DNA from: an uncultured Clostridia bacterium
Lineage (GTDB): Bacteria > Acidobacteriota > Aminicenantia > UBA2199
DNA length: 64,000 bases
Reading direction: 5' to 3'
Assembly: GCA_964502145.1 (NCBI GenBank)
Contig: CAZCVI010000007.1
Location: 118,297-182,296, forward strand
This document shows positions 7,257-52,196 of the stretch, piece after piece (the stretch's first letter is position 1; each line of letters begins with the position of its first letter). The position numbers were made by a program, and so were the translations under genes. The notes under the pieces are model-generated. The model was not told the origin of the DNA. It saw only the letters and a program-made list of their open reading frames with translations, and did not search any database.

Positions 7257-7304
7257 CCCGGAGGTCCAGAGCCTTTTTTTTAAAAAGCGCCCTGGCCTCC
7301 GGGG
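7257..7304. terminator. Hairpin with a 12-bp stem (CCCGGAGGTCCAG...CTGGCCTCCGGG) and a T-run, sitting between convergent genes; possibly bidirectional
   Basis: Inverted repeat and TTTTTTTT were read in the sequence. Confidence 0.5.
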
Positions 7305-7314
7305 ACAACTAACT

Positions 7315-10718: not shown

Positions 10719-11645
10719 TTACTTATTGACCTGGAAAGTGCGGTCGCCTTTTTCCAGGAATTGGACGATTTGTTTCATGGCAGCGATGCCAGCGTTGATA
10801 TTGGCTTCTTCAGTTTGGGCGCCCAGTTTTTTGGTCGTAAAAAAGACCCTGGCCCCGTATTTTTCTTTGAGCACATCCTGGCATTTAGGCGCTACATCCG
10901 CCGCGTACATAAAATCTTTCCGTTCTTCCATGATTTTTTGCAAGCCTGTTTCGTCGATGACTTCTTCGCGGGCCGTATTGATCACAGCCACGCCTTTTTT
11001 AGTTTTGGACAGCAGCTCGTAGTTAACCGAGCCGATCGTTTCCTTGACTTTCGGCAGGTGAATCGAGATATAATCGCAGGTTGAATATAATTCATCCAGA
11101 GAATTGACCGGTTTCACCCCGTCCGCCATCATCCGTTCTTTTGGGATATAGGGATCAAACGCGCAGACGTCCATATCAAAGCCCTTGGCGATTTTATTCA
11201 CCAGGAAGCCGATATTTCCGTAAGCATGGATGCCCAGTTTTTTACCTTTTAACTCTGTGCCTGACTTCCCTGAATAGGCTTTTCTCGCCAGATTAATCAT
11301 CAAGCCGAAGACCAGTTCTGCCACCGCGTTGGAGTTTTGACCGGGAGTATTCATGACTACCACGTTATGTTCAGTAGCTGCTTTTAAATCCACGTTATCG
11401 TACCCCGCCCCGGCGCGTACAACGATCTTCAAATTTTTCCCCGCATCGATCACCGCAGGAGTAACCAGGTCGCTCCTGATGATCACCGCATCCACATCCG
11501 CCACGGCAGCCGTAAATTGAGTGGCATCCGTATAAGATTCCAACAACACCACATCGTATCCCGCTTCAGCGGCCACTTTTTTAATACCGTCCACTGCCTC
11601 TTTTGCAAAAGGTTTTTCAGTGGCAACCAACACTTTTTTTGACAT
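10719..11645 (-). CDS. D-isomer-specific 2-hydroxyacid dehydrogenase (D-3-phosphoglycerate dehydrogenase-like)
   Basis: NAD-binding motif GIHAYGNIG. The catalytic domain layout is typical of the SerA/2-hydroxyacid dehydrogenase family. Confidence 0.85.
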   Translation of the reverse strand: MSKKVLVATEKPFAKEAVDGIKKVAAEAGYDVVLLESYTDATQFTAAVADVDAVIIRSDLVTPAVIDAGKNLKIVVRAGAGYDNVDLKAATEHNVVVMNTPGQNSNAVAELVFGLMINLARKAYSGKSGTELKGKKLGIHAYGNIGFLVNKIAKGFDMDVCAFDPYIPKERMMADGVKPVNSLDELYSTCDYISIHLPKVKETIGSVNYELLSKTKKGVAVINTAREEVIDETGLQKIMEERKDFMYAADVAPKCQDVLKEKYGARVFFTTKKLGAQTEEANINAGIAAMKQIVQFLEKGDRTFQVNK

Positions 11646-11936
11646 GTGTCACCTCTCTTAAATTAGTCTTAAAATCTAATATAGCGTTATTATTATAAAA
11701 TCTATAAAATCGTTATTAATTCAATTTCTTTAAATTCGATTTTAAAACATTCCCACCCAATTGTCAATTAGAAATTTTATATCTAGTCAGTTTTTTGGCA
11801 GTAGGTATCATTGAATCTCTGATACGTTTCGCGCCACGATTTTATTTGACGCAAGTTAGATTGCAATATACTCATGTGGATGGCAAGCATTCATTGGGTT
11901 TTGGGGTACACCTTTTCCCTGTCATTGATTTATTGC

Positions 11937-12092
11937 TGAATCCACCGCCAAATTTCTTAAATCGTTGTGGACAATATGGACGTAGTGGACGATATGGACA
12001 AAAAAATGCTTTTGTTTTTGCTCCACTTCGTCCACATCGTCCATTAAGTCCATATCGTCCATGTTTTTTCACAAATCTGATGGTGAATCCAG
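11937..12092 (+). mobile_element. Hairpin element H1 (MITE-like): terminal repeats ...GAATCCACCGCCAAAT / GGTGAATCCAGG, arms of tandem 9-mers (nnnnTGGAC), conserved loop AAAAAAATGCTTTTGTTTTTGCTCCA
   Basis: Read directly from the sequence. It is homologous to the copies at 48.0, 51.9 and 61.5 kb. Confidence 0.7.
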
Positions 12093-12110
12093 GGGAGGCT
12101 GTTCAAAAAA

Positions 12111-12277
12111 CTGCCTAATGGTTCCGACGGTCAGGAACCTTTGAACCTGGCCGGGAATTAAAATTTAATTATAGTACATATTCCCGGTCAATTCAAGAGT
12201 GAAAAAACCGTCAAAAATTACCGAACGTGACCAAAATGTGACTATCTTTTTTTTTGACCAAAAAAAGAAGTGCCGTA
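12111..12277 (+). repeat. Island-boundary repeat copy A (about 165 bp) with core CCGAACGTGACCAAAATGTGACTAT and 5' motif GGTTCCGACGGTCAGGAACC
   Basis: It aligns along its length with 17711..17873 in the same orientation. A core copy also occurs at 20346..20367. Confidence 0.6.
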
Positions 12278-12355
12278 GTCTGGTTACGTTTGGTGGATTT
12301 ATAAACTGTCATCAGCTAGGAGTTCAAGTAGTCATTAATCGAAATGCTATATAAA

Positions 12356-12865
12356 CTATAAGCGTTGAAAACCATTTTCATTGTGCAGACTAATCCATAG
12401 GCGGAGGCCTGGGGTATAAGAACCGACAATTATCATTATAAAAGCATTCAGTTCGTGCTTTGATTTTAAAAAGGAGTCTTGCATTGAGTGCAAGTCTATT
12501 ATAGAAGGAGATGGATTTCGCTGAAAATGGGTATGCCATTCTCCCACAAAGTGGAGATCTGTATTGAAGAACTGGGAAATGATATCTTTTTGCGGCTTTC
12601 GATACGGAATAAAGCTGAACTTGCTCCTCTTATCTAGTTTGTGTGGTGTTGTAGCTTGTTTGATGATGATTCTTGGTAGGCAAAGTTCGGCGAATAAAAG
12701 TCCTCCGGCTTCTGGTTTTCCACCAGTTTGGCGATAAAATTTAAAGATTTCTATCACCGGATCACTTAACTCCAAAATTTGACCCGAATTTGGTATTCGG
12801 TATCGAAAAACAGTGTCTTTGCTATCATCTAATTGCATACGGTGCAATCCTTTTTGGAATCCCAA
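12356..12865 (-). CDS. cap3: Cap3-like JAB/JAMM (MPN+) deubiquitinase-family peptidase
   Basis: JAMM motif E...HTHx7SxxD (EWHTHFQRNPSPSIIDL). It is the last gene of the operon and its start overlaps the end of cap2. The start could instead be M10 at 12838. Confidence 0.8.
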   Translation of the reverse strand: MGFQKGLHRMQLDDSKDTVFRYRIPNSGQILELSDPVIEIFKFYRQTGGKPEAGGLLFAELCLPRIIIKQATTPHKLDKRSKFSFIPYRKPQKDIISQFFNTDLHFVGEWHTHFQRNPSPSIIDLHSMQDSFLKSKHELNAFIMIIVGSYTPGLRLWISLHNENGFQRL

Positions 12866-14580
12866 CTTGTATAATGCACCCTGGAATATCCTTTTGAATC
12901 AATACGCACCTTCCATTCCGGGGAAATCAATGCATCAGTATTCCAAAAATACTCTCTATCACTTATCCAAGTCTTGAGTTCGGACCTTTCAGGTTTTTCA
13001 TTAAGGCTCCTTATTGCCTCATTGACAATTAATGAAACCACTGGTAGCATTGCAGCCGGGCCATACTGTTGATATTGTGTGCATTCACCGGGTTCACGTT
13101 TTAGTGTCTTCCCCTGAAATTTCGTTACTGCATATTTAAACTGACCGAATCTATTCATCTCACATGCCAAACAACCACTTCCATTTACCCTCAATAGACA
13201 GTGACCCGCGACGGCATAAGGCTCAAGCCATCCAAATAGAATAGGGGGAATTTTAATCTCATGAGATATGTAATTTAAAGGTCCTTCGCTTCTCCAGTCC
13301 CCAATAGTACTGACAATGATATCATAATTATCAAATAATTTATCATTGTCTCGAAGCGCATCTTGCCATTTCTTTGTAATCCAAGAAATTTGAAGATGTG
13401 GCATCTCGTTTCCTAAAGATAGAGCTGTTGCTTGTGCTTTGAACCTTCCACAAAATTTTGCTCCTAAAATGTGTCGTCCGATATTTGCCCATTTTAATTT
13501 GTCGTGATCTATAATAGTTATTTTGGAAACTCCAGCCTTGGCCAAATAATGTGCAACATATCCACCCAATGAACCGCAACCTATTAGTAATACAGCGCGT
13601 TTCTGAAAACTTCCTCCGTCCCCTCCACGAGAGTGAATCCAGGAATAATCTATACGTTCAACCAAGCATTTTGTGACTTTTGTCTTTTTCATCAATGGCA
13701 GACATTTGTCTATTATTTCTCTAATAGATTGCTTACCACTCATTATGAGATTATAATTAGTTACAGTCGTTACCTGAAAATAGACTCCCCCAAGAGCATA
13801 GCCATTATCTGTTTTCTGAGCTAAGAGAACAAAAATAAGAGGCTGTTTGGATACAAACAGCTTGATTAGCAACTCAAGCTCTTCTTCTGCATTTATAGAT
13901 AGTAACATGGTGACTAAGTCACTTAATGTCTCAGGGTATTCTTTTGGAAGTAAAGGGGCATCAAGAACTACCAAAATCCCATTTCTTGTTGATTTAACTT
14001 GGTTTTTAGTTCCAAAAAAATTCTCTTGCCATTTTTTTAAGCTTTCGGTAGAGATTGACGCAAAGATGAAATTTTCAGAATATGATATATCAAATGAGGT
14101 ACCAAGAACTTCTGGAGAATCAATAAGTAGAGAGACTTTGCCTCCGCTATCCAGGCAACGATTCCAATATACAGAAAATTCTGTTTGAAAATCGTCCACT
14201 TCTTTTCCTTCAAGTATTTTCTTTGTGGACTCAACTACTTCCCAAAATAAATCAACCGGATTATTAATATCAATACTTGATGATTCAGGAATAACACATA
14301 AATTACCATCTTCAAAGACATGAGGTATTTTTAATATCAATTTTTCGCCTCCAAGCACTTTGATTTGAGGAGGCTGGTCTGGAAAATCTTTGGTCAAGAG
14401 AACATGTATTTCCCATTTCTTTCCATTTGTTTCGACAAAGCTGCTCCATACTTTAAATTCTGATGGGTATCCATTATCTTCAGGTGGTAATTCACAAAAT
14501 TCCTTGTTATCAGCCAAAGCTTCAGAAATCATCTGAATAGACCGGTTTCGTCTGTCATTCAAACTGGACAAACTACTCAT
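12829..14580 (-). CDS. cap2: Cap2-like E2-E1 fusion (UBC-like N-terminus plus ThiF/MoeB-type E1 adenylation domain)
   Basis: E2-like PHVFEDGNLCVIP carries the catalytic Cys. E1 Rossmann motif LLIGCGSLGGYVAHYLAKAGVSKITIIDHD. C-terminal CxxC. ATGA overlap with the upstream CD-NTase gene. Confidence 0.85.
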   Translation of the reverse strand: MSSLSSLNDRRNRSIQMISEALADNKEFCELPPEDNGYPSEFKVWSSFVETNGKKWEIHVLLTKDFPDQPPQIKVLGGEKLILKIPHVFEDGNLCVIPESSSIDINNPVDLFWEVVESTKKILEGKEVDDFQTEFSVYWNRCLDSGGKVSLLIDSPEVLGTSFDISYSENFIFASISTESLKKWQENFFGTKNQVKSTRNGILVVLDAPLLPKEYPETLSDLVTMLLSINAEEELELLIKLFVSKQPLIFVLLAQKTDNGYALGGVYFQVTTVTNYNLIMSGKQSIREIIDKCLPLMKKTKVTKCLVERIDYSWIHSRGGDGGSFQKRAVLLIGCGSLGGYVAHYLAKAGVSKITIIDHDKLKWANIGRHILGAKFCGRFKAQATALSLGNEMPHLQISWITKKWQDALRDNDKLFDNYDIIVSTIGDWRSEGPLNYISHEIKIPPILFGWLEPYAVAGHCLLRVNGSGCLACEMNRFGQFKYAVTKFQGKTLKREPGECTQYQQYGPAAMLPVVSLIVNEAIRSLNEKPERSELKTWISDREYFWNTDALISPEWKVRIDSKGYSRVHYTSWDSKKDCTVCN

Positions 14581-15644
14581 CCGAACCTGCCGCCACCCCT
14601 GTGATCGACTGAACCTTTAGGAGTTGAAACTGCTATCCCAGCAGCAAAGTTGCTAACATTTTGACTATCGTTATTATTTTCATCATATTTTTTAAAGAAG
14701 CCATCACTCTTAAACACCCAATCCCAGATTGTGCTAGCGTCGGATTGCTTACAATCTATATTATCAAGAATTTCCAGTTTCTCCAGTGCTTCCTTGATTT
14801 TTTCCAATAACTGACAGACACTGTCATCCATTAAGGTTCGGGTAATTTGTGGATTATCGGGGTGTGCAAGATTAAAAATAACTTTCGAACATTCCAAACG
14901 TTTTTTCAGGTTCTTTAGAAGATTTCGAAAAGCTATGTCTAAGCCGCTTGAAAACTCCGGCTGACATTCAGATACAAGCATAGTTAACTTCATACCATTG
15001 GGTAAATCCCAATTTCTTTGACTGCGGCAGAATCGTTTCAATAACTGTACGAGTCTCCTCATTTGGGTACCTTTGCCATCCGTATTGTAGTTGCGATTTG
15101 TAACCTCAGATTCGAACCATACAGTAACCTGCGTCGGGTCTGAAACTGTCCAATTTTCGCCACTGGCAAGTTCTCGTTCGTATTTCCCTTCTCCATCATT
15201 ATACTTTCGATACACAGGAAAATCAACGTGATGTTTTTCTTCATCTCCATCTGCATAGAAAACACGAACACAATTGGTGCATAGTCTTGGCTGTCGATTA
15301 AAACGATTGTCCTTTAGTGCCTCTCGTACTTTATTTTTTACATCCATAGCTGACAATTCGTTTCCTTCAGCATTTATTAGATCACTTTTCCATAAAACCA
15401 AGCCATCATCTATATCGTATTCTTCATCCAAAAAACGTGCCTGAATAATGGTTTTCATTGCCATTGAGCCCTGGGGTTTGAAAGAAGATTCCCCGATGCT
15501 CAACCCCTCTATCTCTTCGGGAAGTCTTTTAATCAAGCGGTCACGGTTTACCTTTCTATGATTGAACAACTTATTTTTAGAATCCTCTCTAAGACATACC
15601 TTTTCATCCCAAAAGGCCTCTATTCGCTTACTATAATCGTACAT
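14577..15644 (-). CDS. cGAS/DncV-like nucleotidyltransferase (CD-NTase)
   Basis: Pol-beta-type GS...DID motif (QGSMAMKTIIQARFLDEEYDIDDG). Third acidic residue in HHVDFPVY. C-terminus ends ...GGGRFG, a Gly terminus suited to Cap2-mediated conjugation. Confidence 0.8.
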   Translation of the reverse strand: MYDYSKRIEAFWDEKVCLREDSKNKLFNHRKVNRDRLIKRLPEEIEGLSIGESSFKPQGSMAMKTIIQARFLDEEYDIDDGLVLWKSDLINAEGNELSAMDVKNKVREALKDNRFNRQPRLCTNCVRVFYADGDEEKHHVDFPVYRKYNDGEGKYERELASGENWTVSDPTQVTVWFESEVTNRNYNTDGKGTQMRRLVQLLKRFCRSQRNWDLPNGMKLTMLVSECQPEFSSGLDIAFRNLLKNLKKRLECSKVIFNLAHPDNPQITRTLMDDSVCQLLEKIKEALEKLEILDNIDCKQSDASTIWDWVFKSDGFFKKYDENNNDSQNVSNFAAGIAVSTPKGSVDHRGGGRFG

Positions 15645-15652
15645 GATCTCTC

Positions 15653-16408
15653 CTATTCTGTAGTTTCACTGAGTTGATTTGCGTATGCCATCCAATCAAC
15701 TGCTGGGACAGTGGCAAGTGATTGAAGTTTCCAAAGTAGACGAAATGCAAAATATGCAAGGGCGTTTCTCCTCGGACCAAATGAGTAATTATTATCCTCT
15801 GAAAAGACATCAAAGCAAGCTCCCGTCACTGCAAAACCACAATCAATTTTTTTGTGACCCGTCAATTGCAGATGATTTTGTTGGAAAGTGTCGCCTAGCC
15901 CATCGCCCCAACTAACATCTATAGCAAGGATTCCCCCAATGATATTAAACAATGGTTTTGCGTTGAATACACCTCCAGCGTGAAAAATATCGACGGATGT
16001 GCGTTTAAGCTTACGAACCGATGCAATCTTTTCGCCTGCGTATTCAAGGTATTGCTTATTAATGGTTGGTTTACATTCAAACACCGCGTAAACCGCTTCT
16101 GCCGGAACGTATCTGTGTTTGGCGTTGTCCAATAATGTTGGAGTATATTGCCGGTCAAATACCACAACATCAATTGAATCACTAACCGCTCCTTCACTGT
16201 CAAGAACGATAGCCTTCTCTACTGTGTACCGATTTGGTAGATATGAACGCAGGAAATCAAGAAAAAACTGTTCATTTACTTCTCCGCGGTCACCTGGATG
16301 CGTAATACGTGAAGATGAGCGAAGGTTTACTTCAAGACATTCTTGTTCGGATGAAAAAGCATCTCTGAGGAACTGTGTCGAGTTGGGAATATTTAATATT
16401 GCACACAT
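15653..16408 (-). CDS. Putative CBASS effector with a restriction-endonuclease-like PD-(D/E)xK motif (possibly NucC-like; about 251-284 aa)
   Basis: SIDVVVFD...AVFECKP gives D...D...ExK. The start is ambiguous. ATG 16408 follows the upstream stop. ATG 16507 has a GGAG 3 nt upstream but would overlap the DUF2188 gene by 74 nt. Confidence 0.55.
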   Translation of the reverse strand: MCAILNIPNSTQFLRDAFSSEQECLEVNLRSSSRITHPGDRGEVNEQFFLDFLRSYLPNRYTVEKAIVLDSEGAVSDSIDVVVFDRQYTPTLLDNAKHRYVPAEAVYAVFECKPTINKQYLEYAGEKIASVRKLKRTSVDIFHAGGVFNAKPLFNIIGGILAIDVSWGDGLGDTFQQNHLQLTGHKKIDCGFAVTGACFDVFSEDNNYSFGPRRNALAYFAFRLLWKLQSLATVPAVDWMAYANQLSETTE

Positions 16409-16433
16409 CTTGGTGTCAGTGTATTTATAAAAA

Positions 16434-16682
16434 TTACATTTCAGTATCTTTGATTGATCTCGGATCATTTCCCGGGGCAATAGTATCTTTACTACGAATT
16501 TTCCCATTAACTCCCTTTGTGATCAATTCACCACCACCTTGGTTATTGAGCATTTTTTTTGCAGTGTCCCCTGCCTCTTTTTGAGTATTGTGAAGCGAAG
16601 ATGCTTGATCGGAATCAATCCGCTTATTAACCCATTTTCCATCATTACGCTTGTAAACTATTCTATCTCTGTCTTTGCTCAT
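16434..16682 (-). CDS. DUF2188-family small protein (82 aa)
   Basis: The DUF2188 pattern is present (VYKRNDGKWVNK...TQKEA...ELITKGVNGKIRSKDTIAPGNDPRSIKD). AAGGAG lies 6 nt upstream of ATG 16682. The track ORF starts further upstream at TTG. Confidence 0.7.
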   Translation of the reverse strand: MSKDRDRIVYKRNDGKWVNKRIDSDQASSLHNTQKEAGDTAKKMLNNQGGGELITKGVNGKIRSKDTIAPGNDPRSIKDTEM

Positions 16683-17347
16683 ATCTTTCTCCTTTGTTAA
16701 TATTAACAATTCTCATCTTTTTCCTTTCCTTATGATTCTGACCCTTGTTTTCAGTATCCATGGGGCTATTAACTTTATTTTCCTCCTTCTCTGGCTCTAA
16801 ATCTGAGTCAAACGTCACCACATAAATATTATCCTAAAATGCTAATATTATATTGTAGCATCAATTTTCCATTTTGTCAACAAAAAAAACAGTATCTATT
16901 CAGTTTTTTGGCAGCGGCCCCACCCACGTCGCTTTGCGCCGTGGGATTATAACTGGAAAGAAACTCGTGCAATTGGGAGTGCTTGGAAACAGTAGAGTAA
17001 AAGAATGCGACAAGGATGTCGCGTCTACATAGACGCGCCATCCCTGGCGCATTAAAAAAAAATATACTGCCAAATTACTGGTATCTCCTGAAGAGGTATT
17101 TGCTCCCATGGATGATATTTGGGCGGATTATCTGTGACAAAAGCCAAATCTCGGCAGTTACGGAAAACCTTACACCAAAAACAATGATTAGTGTGCTCAT
17201 TTGTAAATAAATTCCCCGATTTTTCGGAAATTTTGCCCTCCAGCCTGATTCGCAAGTGAATTAGGGTCAGTGATGACTGAATTAGAGTCAAAAAAGTGCA
17301 AATAGGGTAAACGATGACCGATTTTCATGTAAATTTTTCCTCAAAGG

Positions 17348-17380
17348 GTCAACGATGACCCTCGGAGGGACATCGTTGAC
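17348..17380. repeat. Near-perfect 33-bp palindrome GTCAACGATGACCCTCGGAGGGACATCGTTGAC
   Basis: Read directly. It is part of a composite element that is repeated in inverted orientation at 57.2 kb. Confidence 0.8.
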
Positions 17381-17422
17381 TGATTTAGATAGAATTCAGT
17401 GCAAATTCGTATCATTTTGACC

Positions 17423-17640
17423 GATTTTCAGTCGTGGATGACCGATGGCGGACAATTTTGTCCGACAAGGGACAATGATGAGTGATTTTCAGTCGTGGAT
17501 GACCGTTGGCGGACAATTTTGTCCAACAAGGGACAATGATGAGTGATTTTCAGTCTCTGATGACCGATGGCGGACAATTTTGTCCAACAGGGACAATGAT
17601 GAGTGATTTTCAGTCGCTGGTGACCATTGGGCGGCAAAAA
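17423..17640 (+). repeat. Tandem direct repeats: 3.5 units of about 61 bp (GATTTTCAGTCGTGGATGACCGATGGCGGACAATTTTGTCCGACAAGGGACAATGATGAGT), each with an internal small hairpin
   Basis: Units run 17423-17483, 17484-17544 and 17545-17604, then a partial unit. No unique spacers are present, so this is not CRISPR. Confidence 0.85.
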
Positions 17641-17710
17641 TAATACTATTAGGCTTGGCAATGCTTTTATTCCTGAAATATAGCCTGACCAGAAACTAAA
17701 AAATAATTCC

Positions 17711-17873
17711 CCTGCCTCCGGCGGCCAAGAATGCTTGAACCCGGCCTAAATCTGAAATATAATTATAACAGAAGTTCCCAGACAACTCAAAAGGAAAAAA
17801 ATCACCCAAATTCCCCGAACGTGACCAAAACGTGACTATTGTTTGTTTTTAACTAAATGCCGTTCTGCTATTT
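17711..17873 (+). repeat. Island-boundary repeat copy B (homolog of 12111..12277)
   Basis: Shared core CCGAACGTGACCAAAACGTGACTAT and a shared 5' region (CTGCCTCCGGCGGCCAAGAA...TTGAACC.GGCC...AATTATA...). Confidence 0.6.
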
Positions 17874-17908
17874 GATACGCGAATTGATGGATAGGTTGTT
17901 CGTTGTTC

Positions 17909-18661
17909 CTAATGACCTTTTGGAACTATTACAACCTTGACAATAAAATCGTCGTTATTTCTGGCAAGATCATTTTCTAATCCTCTTGGGTTTGATATCA
18001 ATCCTTCTGGATCATAAACAAAACAGATGAGTTTCTTACAATCTGGATGTTTTTGATATCGCTGAATATCCACTAGTAGCTCTTCTCCAATCTGTTTCTC
18101 CTTTAAGGTTTTCCGGGTCTTCTTTACTTCAATGATTATTTGTTCTTCCTTTATGAGGAAATCTATCCTTGAGTTACTCCCGGCATAGCTTGGCGTATAT
18201 TCTTCAGGTCGGATATCATCAAAAAAAATGTGTAACAGCGAATGCAACAAATCCTGCGTGTCATATTCATCGTTGACTTCCAGTGTTGCACCTTCTGAAT
18301 GGCGTGATCTCAGTTGCTTCGCAACAAGATGAAAACGCGAACATATTTGCTCTATCAGTTTAAGAGAATTTTGTTTACTTGGCTCCGATACCAGTTGGGA
18401 TAGCTTTTCTTTGCTTAGAGTCCACGGAAATGGCTCACCGCAATTTTCACAATGTGTCGGAACAGGTTCTGTAGAAGGAATACCAAATACACCATCAACA
18501 TGGTAATCTCCCTTTATTGGATGATTACAGTGCGGACATTGGTGAATAGTTTTTTCACCACAACTTGGACAGAAGCTTTTTCTAAACTCAGGATATTTAT
18601 TGTAATTGTCTGTAGTTTGATGACCTTTCAAACAAACTTGCTGAACATCATAATCTCCCAT
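17909..18661 (-). CDS. Hypothetical protein with two N-terminal zinc ribbons and a C-terminal PD-(D/E)xK-like nuclease-fold motif
   Basis: CPSCGEK...CPHCNH...CENCGE. C-terminal ...FFDD...RIDFLIKEEQIIIEVKKT gives D...ExK. Confidence 0.55.
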   Translation of the reverse strand: MGDYDVQQVCLKGHQTTDNYNKYPEFRKSFCPSCGEKTIHQCPHCNHPIKGDYHVDGVFGIPSTEPVPTHCENCGEPFPWTLSKEKLSQLVSEPSKQNSLKLIEQICSRFHLVAKQLRSRHSEGATLEVNDEYDTQDLLHSLLHIFFDDIRPEEYTPSYAGSNSRIDFLIKEEQIIIEVKKTRKTLKEKQIGEELLVDIQRYQKHPDCKKLICFVYDPEGLISNPRGLENDLARNNDDFIVKVVIVPKGH

Positions 18662-19067
18662 ATTTTTTATTACTCCTTTTTTTAATCATTATTGTAATTT
18701 TAAATGATTTAATTTTTTATAATCACAACGTTGTATTATAGCATAAAACATGGATTTGTCAATTTTTTTTGGAGTTCTCCAATTTTTCAATAATTTTAAA
18801 TGGCGATTAGGGGCACACGAAAACAAAGCATGTTCAATCATAGCCAAACCGGGCAACCTGTTCACTCCACATCGTTCATCACCACCTCCTGCGAATACGC
18901 TTCGGCTGGCATACTCTGGCTTTTGCTGCAACGCAGCGGGGAAGCAAAACCCAGGTAAGCCAGACCTGCGCTAAAATCCGGGCGGAGGTGGTTTGAATGC
19001 ATAAAAAAAGTTTCGTGAACAGGCACCCCGTGCAGAGAAATTATTTATTTTTATTCCCAAAAGGGGT

Positions 19068-19096
19068 TGATTTTCATTCTTCAAGTGTGTAATATA
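19068..19096 (+). promoter_or_regulatory. Promoter candidate: TTGATT, 17 bp spacer, TAATAT
   Basis: Read upstream of the 19187 gene. Confidence 0.3.
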
Positions 19097-19186
19097 GCAG
19101 AAGTGGACATTAATATCAAAACCTGTTGGTGGCTGAAGTAAAAGCTGAAGGTGAAAAGGTCAATGGAAACAGATTGAAAAAAAACT

Positions 19187-20299
19187 ATGGATAATAAAAA
19201 CAACTATGAACGCAAAATAAGAGGACGCAAACGCATGGATGCCTCATTCCCCGTTGGGCCTGGAAATGGCGATTTGCCGGAAAGTTATGACACCACGCTT
19301 GGTTCTATCAAAGCACGCATCCAGACTGAACGTCTTCGTATGGTTTTGTCTGCCAATGAAGCAATGATATTGCTGTATTGGGATATTGGCAATGAAATTC
19401 TTGAACGCCAACAACAGGAAGGTTGGGGGGCAAAGGTTATTGACCGACTTTCGGCTGATCTGTGCAAATCTTTTCCCGATATGAAGGGCCTTTCAATGCG
19501 AAATTTACTATTCATGCGTTCTTTTGCGGAAGCATACTCGGATCGGCAAATAGTGAAACAGCTTGTTTCACAATTGCCTTGGGGGCACAATATCCGTATT
19601 TTACAAAAAATCAAAGACCTGGAGAAACGCTTGTGGTACATCAAAATGAGCATTCAAAACGGCTGGTCCCGAAATATTCTTGAACTTCAGATTGATTCCT
19701 GTACATGTGAGCGTCAAGGACAGACCATAAATAATTTTGCAATCACATTGCCTCCTGGGGATTCAGACATGGCAGCTCAAGTATTTAAGGATCCATATCT
19801 ATTCGATTTTATAGGAACAGCCGATCCTCGTCGTGAACGCGAAATTGAGCAGGCCCTAGTAGATCACATTCAGCAGTTCCTGCTGGAACTCGGGACAGGA
19901 TTTGCATTTGTAGGACGGCAGGTTCACCTTGAATTGGGCGATAATGATTTCTATATCGATTTGCTTTTTTATCATCTTATATTACGTTGTTATGTGGTCG
20001 TTGAATTGAAGGCTGTGCCTTTTGAGCCAGGTTTTGTTGGCACATTGAACATGTATTTGTCTGCTGTAGATGATCTATTGCGCCATCCGGACGACAAACC
20101 AACCATTGGATTATTGCTTTGTAAGAACAAAAAACAGCTATTGGTAGAGTATGCACTTCGTGGCTTTCGAAAACCTATCGGTGTGGCTGAATGGGAGACG
20201 AAGCTTGTTAAATCGTTACCTTCTGAATTGAAAGGCTGTTTGCCTACGATAGAAGAGATTGAAGCGGAACTTACAAAGAAAGTGCAAAATAATGAATAA
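19187..20299 (+). CDS. YhcG-like DUF1016 PD-(D/E)xK nuclease-family protein
   Basis: The length and the C-terminal motif DFYIDLLFYHLILRCYVVVELKA are characteristic of the DUF1016/YhcG family. Confidence 0.7.
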   Translation: MDNKNNYERKIRGRKRMDASFPVGPGNGDLPESYDTTLGSIKARIQTERLRMVLSANEAMILLYWDIGNEILERQQQEGWGAKVIDRLSADLCKSFPDMKGLSMRNLLFMRSFAEAYSDRQIVKQLVSQLPWGHNIRILQKIKDLEKRLWYIKMSIQNGWSRNILELQIDSCTCERQGQTINNFAITLPPGDSDMAAQVFKDPYLFDFIGTADPRREREIEQALVDHIQQFLLELGTGFAFVGRQVHLELGDNDFYIDLLFYHLILRCYVVVELKAVPFEPGFVGTLNMYLSAVDDLLRHPDDKPTIGLLLCKNKKQLLVEYALRGFRKPIGVAEWETKLVKSLPSELKGCLPTIEEIEAELTKKVQNNE

Positions 20300-20715
20300 A
20301 ACTTACGTCGTGAGATTGCGATCGGGAAAACAATAAGAACGGTTAAACGTGACCAAAACGTGATTGGTTTATACCATTTTTTAGTAGTTTTTAGTGGTTT
20401 ATAGTAAAAATAAAAATGCTGAAGAAATTCACTGGTTAATGATTTTTACCACACAACTATCTTTTTGGGGACTGATAAAAAAATCAGACCGTTGCCTCCG
20501 GCGGCCAAGAACCCTTTCGAGAAAGGGTTCCTGGACCTCCTAAAGCTTTTGCTATTTAAGGGACTCAACCATACTTACAGAAACTGGTAGGTACACAAAG
20601 AGTTACTAAACAAATGGGACGCAGTCCCCCCTCCGACGGCCAGGGGGCTCTTTTTTAAAGACCACCCTGACCGTGGAACATCGGGCAAAACTTTTTATAT
20701 ATTTATCACAGCGTG

Positions 20716-23700
20716 CTATTTTGCAAACTTGGATTTAATCGTGACCAGAACCGTCTGTTTAGCCGTTTTACCGTTATTTTCCCTACCGACAAACACCAAA
20801 CGGTAATCACCGATGAAGCCCACTCCAGGCTGCCAATAATAGATACCATTTTTAGCGTCCAACGTGGAACCTACTGGTAACTGGCGCAATTCCGTTCCTA
20901 CCTGCAAATAACCAGTACAACCATACCCTACTTGCCCACCCAGTTCTAATACCAGACGTTCCATTTCCCGTATAGTTATTCGCACTATACCTTCTTTATC
21001 CACTGTTGGAATCATAGCTTCCTGACGAACATCATAACCGGTTCGAACTTTTATAGGTCCAGACGTGTCCGTTGACACTATTTCTTTTAAGAACACACCA
21101 CCAGTCGCTGACGTAACCTGCGATTGACCACGCGCATAACCAGAATTCATGCACGTAAAATACCGACTGCCTACGCCATCCATATTACCGGCATTATCAA
21201 TGGCCAACCACTGGATAGTATGCACACCATTGGCATACACGGTGGTATCAAAATCGAAATACGCCAACGAACCAAGACTGTTAGCAAAATTGGGAAACAA
21301 AGAGGCAATATCACCACGGAAAATATTATACTTGGGCTTACCAATCGAAACACCATCAATATAAACATCCAATGTGGAACCATCAATAGGTATTTTATTC
21401 GGCCACGGCGTCAACACCCACCCCTGATTCCTGTAATTTCTTCCCGAAGCCGTTCCGCCCTGGACCGGTGTATCAATCGCGCCAAACGGTTTTACCGCGT
21501 TTTTATTGTCGCAATAAATGGTTTTTTTACCCAGATACACCTTATGTCCGAAATAATCCTGGGCATAGGCATGGAGCGTAAATGTTCCGTTCCCACCATC
21601 CGGTAACATGTTGGTTAAAAGCATGTACCCCCAACCCGCCTGATAATTCATCGGGTAACCAGGAAAAGCAGCTTCCAAATCGGGTCGCGCACCATCTACC
21701 ATTACACCATCGCCAATAAAAACCATACCAGAACCTTCATTGGCCACAGCATCCCGCCACAGCGAAACCTTCTCTATACCAATATCATCAACTGCCCACC
21801 CGGTAACGGGTATACTGCTCATAACCGTGGCACCATCTTCGGGCGTATCCATGCTACCAATAGGTTCGGCATCACTGTTAGCCGGATAAACCCGCAACGT
21901 GACAGCTACAGTCTGTGGTGAATTGACGGCGTTGGTGGATGCGACAGTGACAGTGCCAGTATAAGTTCCTACTGCTAACCCAACAGTGTGTACCGTGACT
22001 TCCAATATTCCGGACTGAGTGCCACTGAACGCATTAATCCTAAACCAATCCGCACTAACCGTGGCAGTCCATTTCAAAATATCATTGCCACTATTGTTGA
22101 CAATAACCTTTTGAGTGGGGGTTTGTGCTGAACTGGACTTGACCGTAGCAAAAAAGAGTTCCTTTCGACTCAATGAAATCGTGGGGTTGGGATTGTCGCT
22201 CACTATCGCAAAAGACTGGTAATTGGTATATGTTGGGATACCATCGCCAGCCTCACTGATGCGTATATAACAGTTGTTGGACACAACATTGGGAACTGTC
22301 CAAGAATAGCTGCCATCATTGGGAGTGGATGCAATAATAGTGGTCCAAGAACTTTTATTATTGGTGGAATACTCCAGTTTCAGTGCCCCCACGGTCAGAT
22401 AGGATTGCCAAATGATATTATGTACCGAGCCCGTCTGCCATCGTTCACCCCCCATAGGTGAAAGCAACACCACGGAGGGTTGGGGTACTAAAATACTAAA
22501 TACGGCGTCACTGGTATCGGACAAGGGGGTGCCAGCCACGCGGCTGACTCTCACTTTACATTGGGTAGAAGGAGTATTGGGCACGGCCCAACTATAAAAA
22601 CCATTATTGGCAGTCGAAGACACGATTGTCGTCCAGGAAGTACTGTTGTTAGTGGAGTATTCGATTTTAACATTCCCAATAGCACCGCTGGAAGTCCAAA
22701 GAATATTCTGTTGCAACCCGGCAAAAAAGGCTTCACCCCCATTGGGCATGGTCACAGTGATGGCGTCACCACCACTACCACCAGAACTAATGGAAAACAC
22801 GGCATTACTGGTATCGGTGGGCACACTGTCCGAAGCATCACTAACCCGCACCAAACATTGGGATGCAGGGGTGTTGGGCACCGACCAAGAATAGGTCCCG
22901 GTATTGGGAGCGGCACTGGAGATTATATTCCAACTCGCGCCATTGTTCGTGGAATATTCTAACTTTACATTAAAAATCGCCCCAGTATAATTCCAAGTAA
23001 TCGGATAAACCGCTCCCCCGGTCAAACTTTCGCCACCATTGGGTGCAGTGAGGTTAATCGTGGGGGTCGTGGCAGAAACAATCGAAAAATTAGCATCACT
23101 GCTATCAATCGGATCACTATCCGCAGCTTCGCTGACACGCACCTTGCATTGAGTGGAGAGAGAATCCGGCACATTCCAGGTATAAGTGCCATCATTGGGC
23201 GTACTGCCAATGATCTCTGTCCAGTTGGCGCCAGCATCGACTGTATACTCGATCTTAACATTCCCCACTGTGCCGGTGGTAGACCACCTGATATTATAAT
23301 CATGGGTGGCGGACCACTCTTCAGCCCCATTGGGCGCCAGAACCGTAATGCGTGGTACACCATCGTCAGCTATGGTAAAAACCCGGGAGGGCTCCCCTAC
23401 TGGAAAACCATCCGCATCATGCACCACGAGCTTACAATTGGTGGACGGCGTAAAAGGCACAATCCATCTGTATAAGTCACGCTCATCACCATTTTGTCTG
23501 AAACTCACGATTCTGATCCAATTATTTCCGCCATCAATTGAATAATCGATGTTCACATGGGTTGTAAAGCCGATCACAGTCCAGCGAACAATATATTCCT
23601 GGCCCACAGTGAGGACTTCTGCCTTGGTAGGGGCTGTCACGCTAATGGTATACGTGCCATCCCAGCCCCAGTGAACCCCAATCATGGATAAGTTAGACAT

Positions 23701-24849
23701 GGCAACGACTACATCGTCCTTGCCATCAAAATTAACGTCGCCCAGAGCAAAACCACCAGTCGTCGGCCATGACCCGTAATATTGCTCGACATTCATGCCA
23801 TGGGTCAGGTCACTCTGCGTAAAAAGACCGATAGTCCCCAAACCACTATGAGCCACAAGAATATCTTTAAAACCATCACGATTGGCATCGCCGATTAACA
23901 ATGCCTCTGGATAAGCCAACGACTTATAGGTCACCATAGCATTCAGTGTTCCCGCATTATTTTGCAGGTAAATACCGACGAACGAGTAGCGACCATCATT
24001 ATGATTGGACACCACTACATCGGACCGCCCGTCATTATTGACATCGCCCAATACCACTTCACCAGGAGAAAGGGCAAGCGAAGCAGGCCCCATATCGTAA
24101 TAGGCTGCCCCTGCAAAGGTTCCAGGTGTAGCACCAGATTGCAGATAAACCGCGACTTCATCCGCATCCGCTTGCCGCATAGTCACGATATCATTTATAT
24201 GATCATTGTTCACATCGCCGATTTCAATATCATTGGCTATAGCATCCGTATCAATAACACTGGATAGCGTTAGATTCCCGCCGCCATCCTGCATCAGGAG
24301 TTCCAGATGCGAGGAACCGGCACCAAACGTATCGGCCACTACATCGGGCAAACTATCATTATTCACATCCCCCACCCTGATCGTGGTGGGCGTACCATGA
24401 GTCAGTGGAATTAAAACCATGGCATCCAGGGTTTTACTGGTATTCTGGAAATAAACACCGATTCCACCTTCAGCACGTATGATCACATCGTTTAATCCGT
24501 CACTATCAATATCAGCGATACCGATACTCTGGTGAATCTTAGTAGTAGTGACTATATTCGTGTCGTATTTCACCGGGTCCATTAATTCCCCGGATGTATT
24601 CTGGATAAAAACTATCAGTTTAAAATCATTTTCATGGGGGTGTATCAAGTTGCTTTCGTTTAAAACCACCACATCCTTCCGCCCATCATTATTTATATCG
24701 CCGATAGCAATCCCTGCTGGTACCGAACCCGTTACATAGCTTCTGACTGGGTGCAACCACCCCTCGTTATAATCAGCAAACACCACGGGTGTGAAAGCCA
24801 GAAGCAGAAATGCCACAATCATTATATATAATATCTTCCTTAAGCCCAC
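20716..24849 (-). CDS. Giant secreted surface protein: FG-GAP/VCBS beta-propeller repeats, an array of about 90-aa Ig-like (Kre9/KNH-like) domains, and a conserved C-terminal module of about 430 aa
   Basis: GDVNNDGRSDVVV-type repeats. Repeating ...NGGE.W..G....I.W...G...V.IEYS.......W..I....N.G.Y.W.VP..S..C.VRVS units. GTG start chosen at 24849, with AGGAGG 6 nt upstream and a classic signal peptide (GLRKILYIMIVAFLLLAFTPVVFA). Confidence 0.75.
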   Translation of the reverse strand: MGLRKILYIMIVAFLLLAFTPVVFADYNEGWLHPVRSYVTGSVPAGIAIGDINNDGRKDVVVLNESNLIHPHENDFKLIVFIQNTSGELMDPVKYDTNIVTTTKIHQSIGIADIDSDGLNDVIIRAEGGIGVYFQNTSKTLDAMVLIPLTHGTPTTIRVGDVNNDSLPDVVADTFGAGSSHLELLMQDGGGNLTLSSVIDTDAIANDIEIGDVNNDHINDIVTMRQADADEVAVYLQSGATPGTFAGAAYYDMGPASLALSPGEVVLGDVNNDGRSDVVVSNHNDGRYSFVGIYLQNNAGTLNAMVTYKSLAYPEALLIGDANRDGFKDILVAHSGLGTIGLFTQSDLTHGMNVEQYYGSWPTTGGFALGDVNFDGKDDVVVAMSNLSMIGVHWGWDGTYTISVTAPTKAEVLTVGQEYIVRWTVIGFTTHVNIDYSIDGGNNWIRIVSFRQNGDERDLYRWIVPFTPSTNCKLVVHDADGFPVGEPSRVFTIADDGVPRITVLAPNGAEEWSATHDYNIRWSTTGTVGNVKIEYTVDAGANWTEIIGSTPNDGTYTWNVPDSLSTQCKVRVSEAADSDPIDSSDANFSIVSATTPTINLTAPNGGESLTGGAVYPITWNYTGAIFNVKLEYSTNNGASWNIISSAAPNTGTYSWSVPNTPASQCLVRVSDASDSVPTDTSNAVFSISSGGSGGDAITVTMPNGGEAFFAGLQQNILWTSSGAIGNVKIEYSTNNSTSWTTIVSSTANNGFYSWAVPNTPSTQCKVRVSRVAGTPLSDTSDAVFSILVPQPSVVLLSPMGGERWQTGSVHNIIWQSYLTVGALKLEYSTNNKSSWTTIIASTPNDGSYSWTVPNVVSNNCYIRISEAGDGIPTYTNYQSFAIVSDNPNPTISLSRKELFFATVKSSSAQTPTQKVIVNNSGNDILKWTATVSADWFRINAFSGTQSGILEVTVHTVGLAVGTYTGTVTVASTNAVNSPQTVAVTLRVYPANSDAEPIGSMDTPEDGATVMSSIPVTGWAVDDIGIEKVSLWRDAVANEGSGMVFIGDGVMVDGARPDLEAAFPGYPMNYQAGWGYMLLTNMLPDGGNGTFTLHAYAQDYFGHKVYLGKKTIYCDNKNAVKPFGAIDTPVQGGTASGRNYRNQGWVLTPWPNKIPIDGSTLDVYIDGVSIGKPKYNIFRGDIASLFPNFANSLGSLAYFDFDTTVYANGVHTIQWLAIDNAGNMDGVGSRYFTCMNSGYARGQSQVTSATGGVFLKEIVSTDTSGPIKVRTGYDVRQEAMIPTVDKEGIVRITIREMERLVLELGGQVGYGCTGYLQVGTELRQLPVGSTLDAKNGIYYWQPGVGFIGDYRLVFVGRENNGKTAKQTVLVTIKSKFAK

Positions 24850-24985
24850 GTTATACCTCCTGTACCCATTGATATGATACGTATATATTATTTGTATAAA
24901 AGACATCTAATTATAAGATTATACTCTAACCTGGAAACACGGTCAAATTTAAAAATTTTGACGGTGTTTCCAAGCTAAAACACTG

Positions 24986-27900: not shown

Positions 27901-27994
27901 TGGTGGGACTTGTCACAGTACTGGCCCATCCCAAAACAGGGAAGACTACCCATACCAGTGCTAACAGATATAATACAAAAATCGCTTTCTTCAT
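24986..27994 (-). CDS. Paralogous giant surface protein (Ig-like domain array plus the same C-terminal module of about 430 aa)
   Basis: Signal peptide MKKAIFVLYLLALVWVVFPVLGWA. GGAGG RBS. The C-terminal 430 aa are colinear with the C-terminus of the 20716 gene product. Confidence 0.85.
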   Translation of the reverse strand: MKKAIFVLYLLALVWVVFPVLGWASTVTSPTTGDTLTMGTTYNIQWTTTVGTTNVVINYSLDGGVTWLNVADPTPDDGSYSWTVPYTTSTNCKILITDEDGYPGGTPSGTFSIVDDGTSRLILTSPNGGEMWVAGKTYNITWLSTGTTGNVKIDYSSNNGTAWTAITASVTNNGSYAWTVPTTESTQCLVRISEASDSDPTDNSNANFSIVSATTPVLNLIYPNGGEGLYGGANASITWNSNGTIYNVKFEYSTDNGSSWNHIATSDNSGSYTWKVPNTPATQCKFRISDSLDGNPIDSSSSSFFIITNPTATPKITLTSPNGGEVFTAGNSHNVTWTSDGAIGNLKVEYSTNNGSSWTLAKSATKNTGTYAWPVPNTPSAQCKVKLTRAEETSISDASDAAFTIGEPVPSIAIQSPVGGETWQMGTTQTITWSSYGGIGDVKIQYSTDNKSSWVTIVSATANDGNYSWLVPAKPSVSCFIKISEASDGVPSATGPLAFSIVTESVEPLISLNRTELFFSAVKSSIAVTPAQTILVDNGGGGTLDWSAVATGDWLRLVGAHGTQTGTVTVSALPTGLAPGTYIEAVVFSSEDVTIPTTSVLVTLTVYPALGDAVPFGNFETPLSGATLMSSVPVTGWALDDVGIEKVLIKRDAVAGEGSGEVFVGEAVLVEGARPDVELAYPGYPMNYKAGWGYMMLTNMLPNGGNGSYTFHVYAVDGVGHEVLLGSKTVICDNINAVKPFGAIDTPAQGGMASRNNYRNQGWVLTPMPNYIPTNGTTLEAFIDGKSIGHLTYNIYRADIAGFFPGYANSNASLAFVDFNTTAFESGVHTIHWMARDSAGNTDGIGSRYFVIQQNAGYRRQNSTLSNRNMSGLNLSALHVEELPLDCYTPVRMKTGYGKGTASSVLRADENGVLRVTISEMERLVLALDLQPGSYLTGFLKVGEQWRPLPIGSSFDNQKGVFYWQPGVGFIGDYPLVLVSTDAQGNSTKRTVLVTIQPKSQY

Positions 27995-52075: not shown

Positions 52076-52196
52076 GATTAACCTTGAGACACTGGTGTGG
52101 AAGGAGTAAAAAGAGGAGAAGAAAGGAAAAATTAAGAAATTATATGAATAGGACTTGACTTCCTTCCACTTTTCCATTATAATAACATTTTATAAT

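Follow-up and report, generated by a model that had tools for sequence, protein, structure and literature searches.

Direct repeats in a defence island of an Aminicenantes-like bacterium as probable attachment junctions of phage D3-family integrase elements

Introduction

What has placed two direct repeats of about 165 bp on either side of a cyclic-oligonucleotide-based antiphage signalling system (CBASS) in the genome of an uncultured, Aminicenantes-like bacterium? The question is raised by a stretch of 64,000 nucleotides (assembly GCA_964502145.1, contig CAZCVI010000007.1, positions 118,297 to 182,296 of the forward strand), here called the window, to which all coordinates refer. Within it, the CBASS module and a neighbouring module of two nuclease genes (module 2, here E2) occupy a low-GC island. 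An earlier note on this DNA had taken the repeats, and a short core sequence common to them, for traces of recombination that delimit acquired modules, and had left the mechanism unknown. The first of these views is borne out by the low GC of the island, by relatives that are free of it and by a second defence gene bracketed by the core, while in place of the second we propose that the core is a tandem arm-type site of phage-D3-family tyrosine integrases. In particular, the 165-bp repeats are probably two related attachment (att) junctions of the attL type. The integrative elements behind them would use a tyrosine integrase that is heterobivalent, as in phage lambda, and belongs to the family of Pseudomonas phage D3, and the island most likely represents an accretion of defence cassettes without an integrase, similar to that of cis-mobilizable elements (CIMEs), which is a known way of island building.

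The island and its direct repeats

The window is chromosomal and has pilMNOPQ, glmM, cdaA, ftsH, pdxJ and a glycogen phosphorylase gene on board. The island extends from about 11.8 to 20.7 kb, has a GC content of 36-42% as compared with 45-50% in both flanks, and its cargo consists throughout of defence or candidate defence genes. It is foreign DNA, because its GC is low and because it is missing beside the orthologous dehydrogenase gene in three relatives. Contigs and loci used for comparison carry L labels, among which L040-L119, L120 and L159-L161 are integrase loci of the phage D3 family. Homologues of the dehydrogenase to the left of the island are 71-72% identical in Aminicenantes, and in the three relatives (L036-L038, orthologue 74-77% identical) both island and core are absent at this place. 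In this comparison, which the earlier note had asked for, the three relatives have different neighbours at the locus, so that no clean empty site can be defined.

The two repeats, here R blocks, are the following.

12111..12277, + strand: R block 1, putative attL-type junction on the 3' side of the CBASS module, with an O-like hairpin and a P'-type arm (O denotes the candidate crossover segment).
17711..17873, + strand: R block 2, putative attL of the nuclease element E2, with O2 and a P' arm.

Their relatedness, already claimed in the earlier note, is firm. An ungapped match joins 12123-12263 and 17717-17857 (141 nt, 72%), the columns of a MAFFT alignment some 200 columns long are on average 80% identical, and the best local alignment of the two intergenic regions (12123-12263 / 17717-17858) scores 63 as compared with 13.2 ± 1.6 (maximum 20) in 200 shuffles. 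Such a layout might by itself suggest homologous, RecA-type recombination that swaps or deletes the cassette, as the earlier note had read it: the direct repeats bracket the CBASS module, and recombination between them would delete the 5.6 kb in between. Exchange of this kind is nevertheless improbable here, as the identity is just 72-80% and the longest perfect run common to both R blocks is 16 nt, below the length usual for efficient RecA-dependent exchange. Moreover, it leaves without explanation several features described below, namely a third copy of the core, a 19-nt repeat that flanks module 2, the agreement between the core and integrase arm sites, and the metagenome contig L034.

The core CCGAACGTGACCAAAAYGTGACTAT is present in both R blocks, as previously noted. 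The sequence AACGTGACCAAAAYGTGA occurs at 12224, 17818 and 20346, always on the + strand, where 0.05 occurrences would be expected by chance in 64 kb, and nowhere else in the window even when three mismatches are tolerated; all three copies lie within the low-GC island. The copy at 20346 reads AACGTGACCAAAACGTGATTGG, in agreement with the earlier reading. On the opposite strand the core reads AGTCACGTTTTGGTCACGTT and thus resolves into two GTCACGTT half-sites with a spacing of 11 bp.

12224..12245, - strand: core 1, two tandem arm-type half-sites, ATAGTCACATTTTGGTCACGTT on this strand (predicted).
17818..17840, - strand: core 2, predicted tandem arm-type sites of a P' arm, AGTCACGTTTTGGTCACGTT on this strand, 87 nt inside O2.
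20346..20406, - strand: core 3 with a P-type flank, AATCACGTTTTGGTCACGTT on this strand, predicted P arm of E2, 130 nt inside O3.

The core as an arm-type site of phage D3-family integrases

The 20-mer AACGTGACCAAAAYGTGAYT was scanned against one genome per bacterial and archaeal species, which returned 15 matches as compared with about 4 by chance. Three of the 15 lie within unrelated genes and look chance-like, one is an Aminicenantes homologue (L026), and nine are found in, or directly past, the 3' end of genes for tyrosine integrases of 360-390 aa in Proteobacteria. In these genes the reverse strand, TCA CGT TTT GGT CAC GTT, encodes S-R-F-G-H-V (..ESRFGHV..), downstream of the catalytic TERYAHLAPEN. 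A tRNA gene adjoins the core in seven of the nine integrase cases and also in two loci without an integrase, L024 from the genome scan and L031 from a metagenome scan. The relative orientation of core and tRNA gene is constant, and the core follows the tRNA 3' end at a distance of 45-69 nt, or of 144 nt in L031, while the tRNAs are of seven species (Leu-tag, Leu-taa, Arg, Pro, Met, Val and Gly). As the core stays constant while the tRNA target changes, it belongs to the element and not to the target or crossover site.

The integrase family includes the Int protein of Pseudomonas phage D3; indeed, one of the viral loci is D3 itself (100% match). Half-sites were compared in 80 viral loci, an unbiased set found through the protein, together with the matches in genomes. 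In every case a direct repeat, NCAC(G/A)-N6-N(C/T)AC(G/A), codes for the tail peptide S/T-(R/Q)-x-x-(H/Y), and among the 16 distinct variants of the tandem site the fifth base is G in both half-sites in 10 (TCACG..TCACG or CTACG), A in both in 6 (NCACA..NCACA or CTACA) and mixed in none. The half-sites hence co-vary and fix the tail peptide, a mark of selection that acts at the DNA level and keeps a single recognition word in duplicate. Sites of the same variant recur on both arms of the attachment region in several phages.

Phage D3 (AttP annotated, AF165214.2), BR141b and L088: TTCACG pair 58-83 nt from the core on the integrase side; TTCACG/GTCACG sites 76-122 nt from the core on the other arm.
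L042: TCACGT type on both arms.
L118: CACGC/TCACG type on both arms.
Pseudomonas syringae phage Cruim01: CACAA type on both arms.
Synechococcus phage Ssp-JY37: 15-mer CACAATCTGGACACA within int at 1997, repeated without change in non-coding DNA at 2300.

In D3, eight of the nine occurrences of TTCACG in 2.8 kb fall at most 125 nt from the annotated AttP. Judged by sequence, this two-arm arrangement is that of the arm-type sites of a lambda-type attP, and the cores of the window are read as predicted arm-type binding sites of an integrase because the half-sites co-vary and the same variant stands on both attP arms. The arm consensus of phage lambda is (C/A)AGTCACTAT, with AGTCAC in common, a likeness that serves as a lead and not as a test. 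A separate scan of viral contigs with a 16-mer gave 31 matches, close to the number expected by chance and in mixed contexts, from which nothing was drawn. With the core taken as an arm-type site of the D3 family, the R blocks would be site-specific att junctions and not substrates of homologous exchange.

The coding nature of the core in the nine proteobacterial integrases (SRFGHV) opens another possibility, namely that the cores of the window are dead scars, the last remnants of degraded integrase genes, which have no function and define no mobile units. The two loci L024 and L031, where tRNA gene and core stand without an integrase, have an appearance of decay, and both O1 and the right-hand end of the CBASS module seem degenerate. 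Furthermore, in keeping with the earlier note, no integrase was found in the window: a Pfam scan of most open reading frames (ORFs) of at least 150 aa gave no recombinase match (several others were covered by precomputed Pfam calls and a few were left unchecked), and tblastn of six D3-family integrases against the window reached a best E of 0.17, with no integrase remnant by the cores. A weak tblastn match at 51131-51595 lies within a TonB-dependent receptor gene and was discarded. Decay is still an unlikely account, since a TAG directly precedes the site in every Aminicenantes-type copy and no integrase-like translation runs alongside, and since the same 20-22 nt are kept in at least eight independent non-coding places whose surroundings are all different. 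In addition, phage attP sites bear like sites in their non-coding P arms, and E2 retains both arms together with a perfect flanking repeat of 19 nt.

Attachment-like geometry of the nuclease module

The earlier note had let the repeats delimit the modules and had placed the third core after the nuclease module. Both assignments have to be changed: the boundary is better given not by the cores but by the perfect 19-nt direct repeat TGCCTCCGGCGGCCAAGAA at 17713-17731 and 20493-20511, which flanks E2, and the third core is no separator but part of the module, within its right end, where it forms the second arm.

17713..17731, + strand: O2, left copy of TGCCTCCGGCGGCCAAGAA; past it the hairpin unit is truncated and stops after CCAAGAA.
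20491..20540, + strand: O3 (20493-20511, right copy of TGCCTCCGGCGGCCAAGAA) in an intact hairpin unit resembling repetitive extragenic palindromic (REP) sequences; candidate attR and regenerated target.
17909-18661, - strand: E2 cargo, DUF2321 + DpnII/MboI-fold nuclease without a methylase partner (Pfam/PADLOC).
19187-20299, + strand: E2 cargo, YhcG/DUF1016 PD-(D/E)xK nuclease, PADLOC candidate PDC-S02.

Cores 2 and 3 lie 87 and 130 nt inside their respective 19-nt repeats and in like orientation, which is the geometry of attL, cargo and attR. When E2 is closed to a circle in silico, the tandem sites come to lie 252 nt apart, as compared with 218-240 nt in D3 and 303 nt in Ssp-JY37, and the gene directed at the P' arm is that for the DpnII-fold nuclease, in the place of the integrase gene of phage D3. 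From the sequence, module 2 (17732-20511) is thus best explained as a complete mini-element without an integrase, with the two nuclease genes as its only cargo, and the 19-nt repeat would be its candidate crossover site. No excisionase-like domain was found in five small ORFs tested in and beside E2.

The contexts of the cores fall into two types. The P' type has the left flank AAATTnCCGrA (cores 1 and 2, L026/L032, L033 and L034-A), and the P type the right flank TTATACnAnTTTnTAGTnnTTTnTAGT (core 3 and L034-B). Adjoining core 3, a 10-nt tandem repeat, TTTTTAGTAG, runs for 2.9 copies at 20378-20406, and the L034 core shows a similar TTTnTAGT periodicity; this repeat may be a candidate accessory-factor site in the P arm.

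A second defence gene is enclosed by the same architecture. The metagenome contig L034 has two cores at a distance of 4 kb, one of the P' type and one of the P type, and between them a type IIG restriction-modification gene and one ORF. Its P'-type core lies just past the cargo 3' end, as in the window, and its P-type flank (864-808) is 79% identical to window 20345-20400. No O-type flanking repeat was found within this contig. The Aminicenantes contig L032 carries a full R block (nhmmer E = 1e-15), in which an O-like CTCCGGTGGCCAG precedes the core by about 90 nt; the block lies at the edge of the housekeeping cluster nusA-infB-truB.

Regarding the target, O3 forms the left shoulder of an intact unit, GCCTCCGGCGGCC-AAGAACCCTTTC-GA-GAAAGGGTTCCTGG-ACCTCC. 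Units of this hairpin family, with GC-rich shoulders CCGGAGGnCCAG ... CTGGnCCTCCGG, are seen at 7262-7305, at 20491-20540, in L026 (312-373) and in L033 (1-42). The copy at 7262-7305 lies between convergent genes outside the island, and its fold has z = -4.95. The REP-like hairpin family is a plausible native target, since its units also occur outside the island and in other Aminicenantes-type contigs. The sole tRNA gene of the window is tRNA-Phe at 52196, and no tRNA-like Rfam match was obtained in 11600-20750 at E <= 5.

The spread of these hairpins also bears on whether the repeats are a generic intergenic element of the REP or bacterial interspersed mosaic element (BIME) type, or a small RNA gene, unrelated to mobility. 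The CCGRCGGYCARG motif belongs to the family that has one copy beyond the island (7262-7305) and further copies in other Aminicenantes-type contigs, and the segments 16885-17090 and 11780-12125 fold better than shuffled sequences (z = -5.2 and -4.6). This reading is nonetheless highly improbable, as the three copies of the core in 64 kb are confined to the island and none is present in L036-L038, and as the R block itself has no stable fold. Rfam, both at gathering thresholds and at E <= 5 over 11.6-20.75 kb, gave only the tRNA-Phe gene and spurious miRNA-like hairpins. The earlier note had named a generic REP found everywhere as what would refute it; that objection fails for the core and applies in part to the CCTCCGGCGGCCAAG motif, whose hairpin family extends to 7262-7305.

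A regulatory role should be considered in parallel, with GTGAC-N6-GTGAC as the operator of a transcription factor and promoters in the R blocks that serve the neighbouring defence genes. Direct repeats spaced by 11 bp suit a DNA-binding protein, a helix-turn-helix gene lies 170 nt from the core in L032, and both R blocks contain conserved promoter-like sequences, over both strands: TTGAAC-17-TATAAT on the + strand (17735-17763), and, on the - strand, TTGAGT-17-TATAAT (17790..17762) and TTGAAT-17-TATAAT (12196..12168), the latter two facing outward between the arm sites and O. The chance that this is what the repeats are for appears small: the cores stand at operon 3' ends, the promoters predicted for these genes are elsewhere (16880..16852 and 18762..18735), promoter-like matches are common in AT-rich DNA (39 as compared with 24.7 expected), and the core is tied specifically to integrase 3' ends, tRNA genes and both attP arms. 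Under the att-junction reading, the outward promoter-like sequences could read across the junction, a suggestion that is weak in AT-rich DNA.

The ends of the CBASS module

The ends of the CBASS module fit less well than those of E2. The features concerned are the following.

12119..12138, + strand: O1, small hairpin GGTTCC-GACGGTCA-GGAACC with the CCGRCGGYCARG motif; diverged candidate crossover segment.
20626..20655, + strand: O4, hairpin CCCCCT-CCGACGGCC-AGGGGG followed by a T run; terminator-like, resembles O1.
17423..17625: 61-nt tandem repeat, 3.3 copies, with the palindrome GGACAATTTTGTCC in the first three units and a GGTGACCA half-site in the last, partial unit.
11963..12062: near-perfect hairpin of 100 nt with four or five tandem 9-nt TGGAC(A/G)AT units per arm; DNA fold z = -6.6.
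11761..11801, + strand: L block copy 1, 41 nt with a 22-nt core (11780-11801), abuts the -35 of the leftward dehydrogenase promoter.
11767..11739, - strand: predicted leftward dehydrogenase promoter, TTGACA-17-TAAAAT.
16874..16914, + strand: L block copy 2, abuts the -35 of the leftward DUF2188/CBASS promoter.
16880..16852, - strand: predicted leftward DUF2188/CBASS promoter, TTGACA-17-TACAAT.

O1 matches O4 at 12 of 13 positions and is closer to it than to O2 or O3. The elements may equally well be nested, E2 then lying within a larger O1...O4 element, or stand in tandem. The GGTGACCA half-site (17617-17626) lies 87 nt left of O2, and the 61-nt repeat region may represent the P arm of the CBASS element in an atypical form. 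Iteron-like words, GGGnnAnnGATGAC, precede this tandem repeat within 17240-17640, a stretch that has the word GGACAA in common with the 9-nt repeats at 11963-12062; the whole looks like a candidate binding array for a dimeric DNA-binding protein, such as an excision, partition or replication factor. Similarly, the 100-nt hairpin at 11963-12062 may be a candidate binding array for an accessory protein.

The 15-mer TCAGTTTTTTGGCAG is indeed duplicated, as the earlier note had reported, at 11787 and 16900 and not at 11779 and 16891. It sits within the 41-nt L block, 78% identical between 11761-11801 and 16874-16914, just upstream of the -35 in two leftward promoters that are predicted to be strong. 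Both intergenic regions open with the L block, which pairs with a CTGCC..AAAACTG segment further right, and the 100-nt hairpin of the first occupies the place that matches the 61-nt repeat of the second. The two regions thus have a homologous layout over their whole length, which suggests, as a conjecture, that the left part of the first intergenic region is the P arm of an earlier, lost element.

A GC-rich segment on the + strand (16891-17085), upstream of and divergent from the DUF2188/CBASS promoter, contains several hairpins, with a closing stem of L block and CTGCCAAATTACTG (RNA fold -70.1 kcal/mol, z = -5.2; no Rfam match), and could be a non-coding RNA or a DNA structure.

Proposed route of accretion

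In the model that we propose, each R block would lead from a candidate crossover segment, a CCTCCGGCGGCCAAG-type motif in a REP-like terminator hairpin, to tandem arm sites about 87 nt further in. A repeat that reaches from the crossover motif to the P' arm sites would account for the limits of the similarity, which sets in at the CCTCCGGCGG motif and stops just past the core. Elements with an attP, made of a P arm, a 19-nt crossover segment and a P' arm, would integrate into a REP-like hairpin; integration would regenerate the target at one end, and a later element would use the regenerated target, giving rise to tandem or nested accretion. The integrase genes would have been lost or never have been on board, so that further movement would need a cognate integrase in trans, and the CBASS module would lie behind an older, more diverged junction of like kind. 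The repeats themselves, the agreement of the core with the arm-type sites of the family, the att-like geometry of E2, the second example in L034 and the lack of the island in relatives are observed; the order of insertion, the role of the 19-nt repeat as crossover site and any present-day mobility of E2 are what we infer. For E2, the model predicts an empty-site junction ...ATAATTCCCC-TGCCTCCGGCGGCCAAGAA-CCCTTTCGAG... and a circle junction ...ATCAGACCGT-TGCCTCCGGCGGCCAAGAA-TGCTTGAACC..., and the 3' end of a cognate D3-family integrase would carry GTCACGTTTTGGTCACG.

A bolder and rather doubtful version would have live mini-cassettes, att-flanked elements of 3-6 kb without an integrase and with one defence system each, that are moved in trans by a D3-family integrase into REP-like terminator hairpins. 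Were this true, they would form an integron-like platform for immunity genes, because REP-like hairpins occur many times per genome, with a lambda-type intasome and arm sites at both ends instead of IntI and attC.

Several observations weigh against the att-junction reading. In addition to the lack of an integrase in the 64-kb window, no cognate integrase was identified in this lineage, and no direct evidence was obtained for excision, an empty site or a circular junction. The arm-DNA binding that we infer for the N-terminal ~60 residues of the integrase received no confirmation from sequence searches of Pfam and the PDB, which leave that region uncovered. In the window the flanking repeat belongs to a REP-like hairpin, whereas the characterised members of the integrase family all target tRNA genes, and L033 has its hairpin in inverse orientation at a distance of just 40 nt from the core. 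A direct repeat of the candidate crossover segment is present at both ends of E2; in the CBASS module, O1 matches O2 at only 13 of 18 positions, and no canonical P-type core lies left of O2. The L block and the GGACAA-type repeats, common to both intergenic regions, are outside what an att model predicts. The nearest homologues of the DpnII-fold protein (71-83%) are found in other contexts, without cores, and the two CD-NTase homologues whose contigs were read (64-65% identical) likewise have no cores. Lastly, the contig break points in sister assemblies are at odds with junctions at O2 and come no closer than 1 nt to one at O3.

With regard to these assemblies, the Logan contig L009 (window 17747-20521), identical in three samples, covers the E2 interior only. 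Its right end is 1 nt away from where the left edge of the 19-nt repeat would give a branch at k=31, and its left end is unexplained by the left-repeat junction; the ends could hint at population variation or an assembly artefact. The Logan contigs L013/L014 end at 16968, and in two samples contigs break at the 100-nt hairpin (12003 and 12064). Most break points come from tandem repeats or the long hairpin, or are ambiguous, and they were rejected as evidence of polymorphism.

Comparison with known elements

The closest parallel is provided by the att sites of the D3 family, which share with the window tandem half-sites (NCACG, 11-bp spacing) on both arms, in one orientation and 60-130 nt from the crossover region, with a window core identical to sites in the 3' ends of proteobacterial integrases and an arm-to-arm distance of 252 nt here and 218-303 nt in phages. 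The differences are that no integrase gene stands beside the sites in the 64-kb window, that the candidate target is a REP-like hairpin here and the 3' end of a tRNA gene there, that the sites are non-coding here while the P' pair lies inside the integrase ORF there, and that the host is Aminicenantes-like.

At the level of the island, CIMEs as known from ICESt1/CIME of Streptococcus thermophilus keep attL and attR and have no integration or transfer genes, and tandem accretion is the insertion into an att site regenerated by a previous insertion (PMC5704250). In the same way, E2 would keep attL and attR without integrase, excisionase or transfer genes and holds only the DpnII-fold and YhcG genes, while the elements of the island adjoin one another and may have att-type junctions in common, R1 and R2 being homologous, putative junctions of the attL type. 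In contrast to CIMEs, the elements are tiny (2.8 kb and ~5.6 kb) and hold defence genes only, no neighbouring integrative and conjugative element, phage or integrase is visible, mobilisation is a prediction from sequence, and the middle junction is atypical, with a left half that lacks a canonical P arm.

Integron arrays resemble the island in being a row of short or promoter-poor defence cassettes with recombination sites at the 3' end and the recombinase outside the cassette. They differ in that no IntI, attI or Pc is present here, the sites are not imperfect attC palindromes (RYYYAAC/GTTRRRY), the cargo genes point both ways, and the arm-type sites imply a lambda-type intasome. An integron cassette array was rejected on these grounds: no integrase was found in the window, the core is built as a direct repeat rather than a palindrome, and a stable fold is absent from the R block. 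Finally, the defence islands at hotspots of enterobacteria (P4/P2-like, tRNA-linked) also bring together CBASS, nucleases and restriction genes in low-GC DNA with att-type repeats, whereas the present locus is neither a tRNA gene nor a prophage locus and has no satellite or phage genes.

The traits that are unusual as compared with known att-flanked elements are the very small size, the defence-only cargo, the candidate REP-like target and the uncultivated phylum. With the att reading, an unexplained repeat is turned into a specific proposal, in which a phage-D3-type integrase, the unit boundaries and the junction sequences are named. In this uncultivated phylum, CBASS and single-gene nuclease systems seem to be carried on cassettes of very small size with att sites on either side, whose landing site may be a terminator-like hairpin and not a tRNA gene, and the architecture of core-bracketed cargo returns around the type IIG gene of L034. 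In the D3 family more generally, the rule that P' arm sites lie in the integrase C-terminal coding sequence and change together with the P-arm sites offers a way of finding attP arms and orphan att scars in any genome.

Cargo genes and neighbouring features

The CBASS operon is transcribed leftward.

12356..16709, - strand: cargo 1, in transcription order DUF2188, NucC-type effector, CD-NTase, E1/E2, JAB.
16434-16709, - strand: DUF2188 gene, first gene of the CBASS operon, PADLOC candidate PDC-S16.
15653-16507, - strand: NucC-type effector gene (Pfam; PADLOC E = 6e-93).
14577-15644, - strand: cyclase (CD-NTase) gene (Pfam; PADLOC E = 9e-98).
12829-14580, - strand: E1/E2 (Cap2) gene (Pfam; PADLOC E = 1e-126).
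12356-12865, - strand: JAB (Cap3) gene (Pfam; PADLOC E = 4e-48).

PADLOC and Pfam concur in a type II CBASS, with a CD-NTase, E1/E2 (Cap2), JAB (Cap3) and an effector. The closest known homologue of the CD-NTase is 72% identical. Both CD-NTase homologues read in their contigs (L157, 1594-8590; L158, 5784-9061) directly adjoin genes of type III CRISPR-Cas (Cas10, RAMP), which indicates that this CBASS lineage sits in defence islands elsewhere too. As homologues of the cargo occur in other genomes without flanking cores, the idea that the cargo moves as a unit was dismissed.

For the DUF2321 + DpnII/MboI-fold protein, identities of 60-83% extend to very distant phyla (Proteobacteria, cyanobacteria, Bacteroidota and Nanoarchaeota), and in another contig (L124/L125) a homologue adjoins the genes for a C5 DNA methylase and Vsr, near an unrelated integrase. 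Blastn of 16850-17900 against phage genomes matched nothing. To the right of the island, on the - strand, 20716-27994 codes for two very large proteins of secreted type (1396 and 1002 aa) with FG-GAP, Ig-like and BACON domains; the gene for the 1396-aa protein contains internal DNA repeats with a period of 291-297 nt (22289-23592), and its product is called as 1377 aa in sister assemblies.

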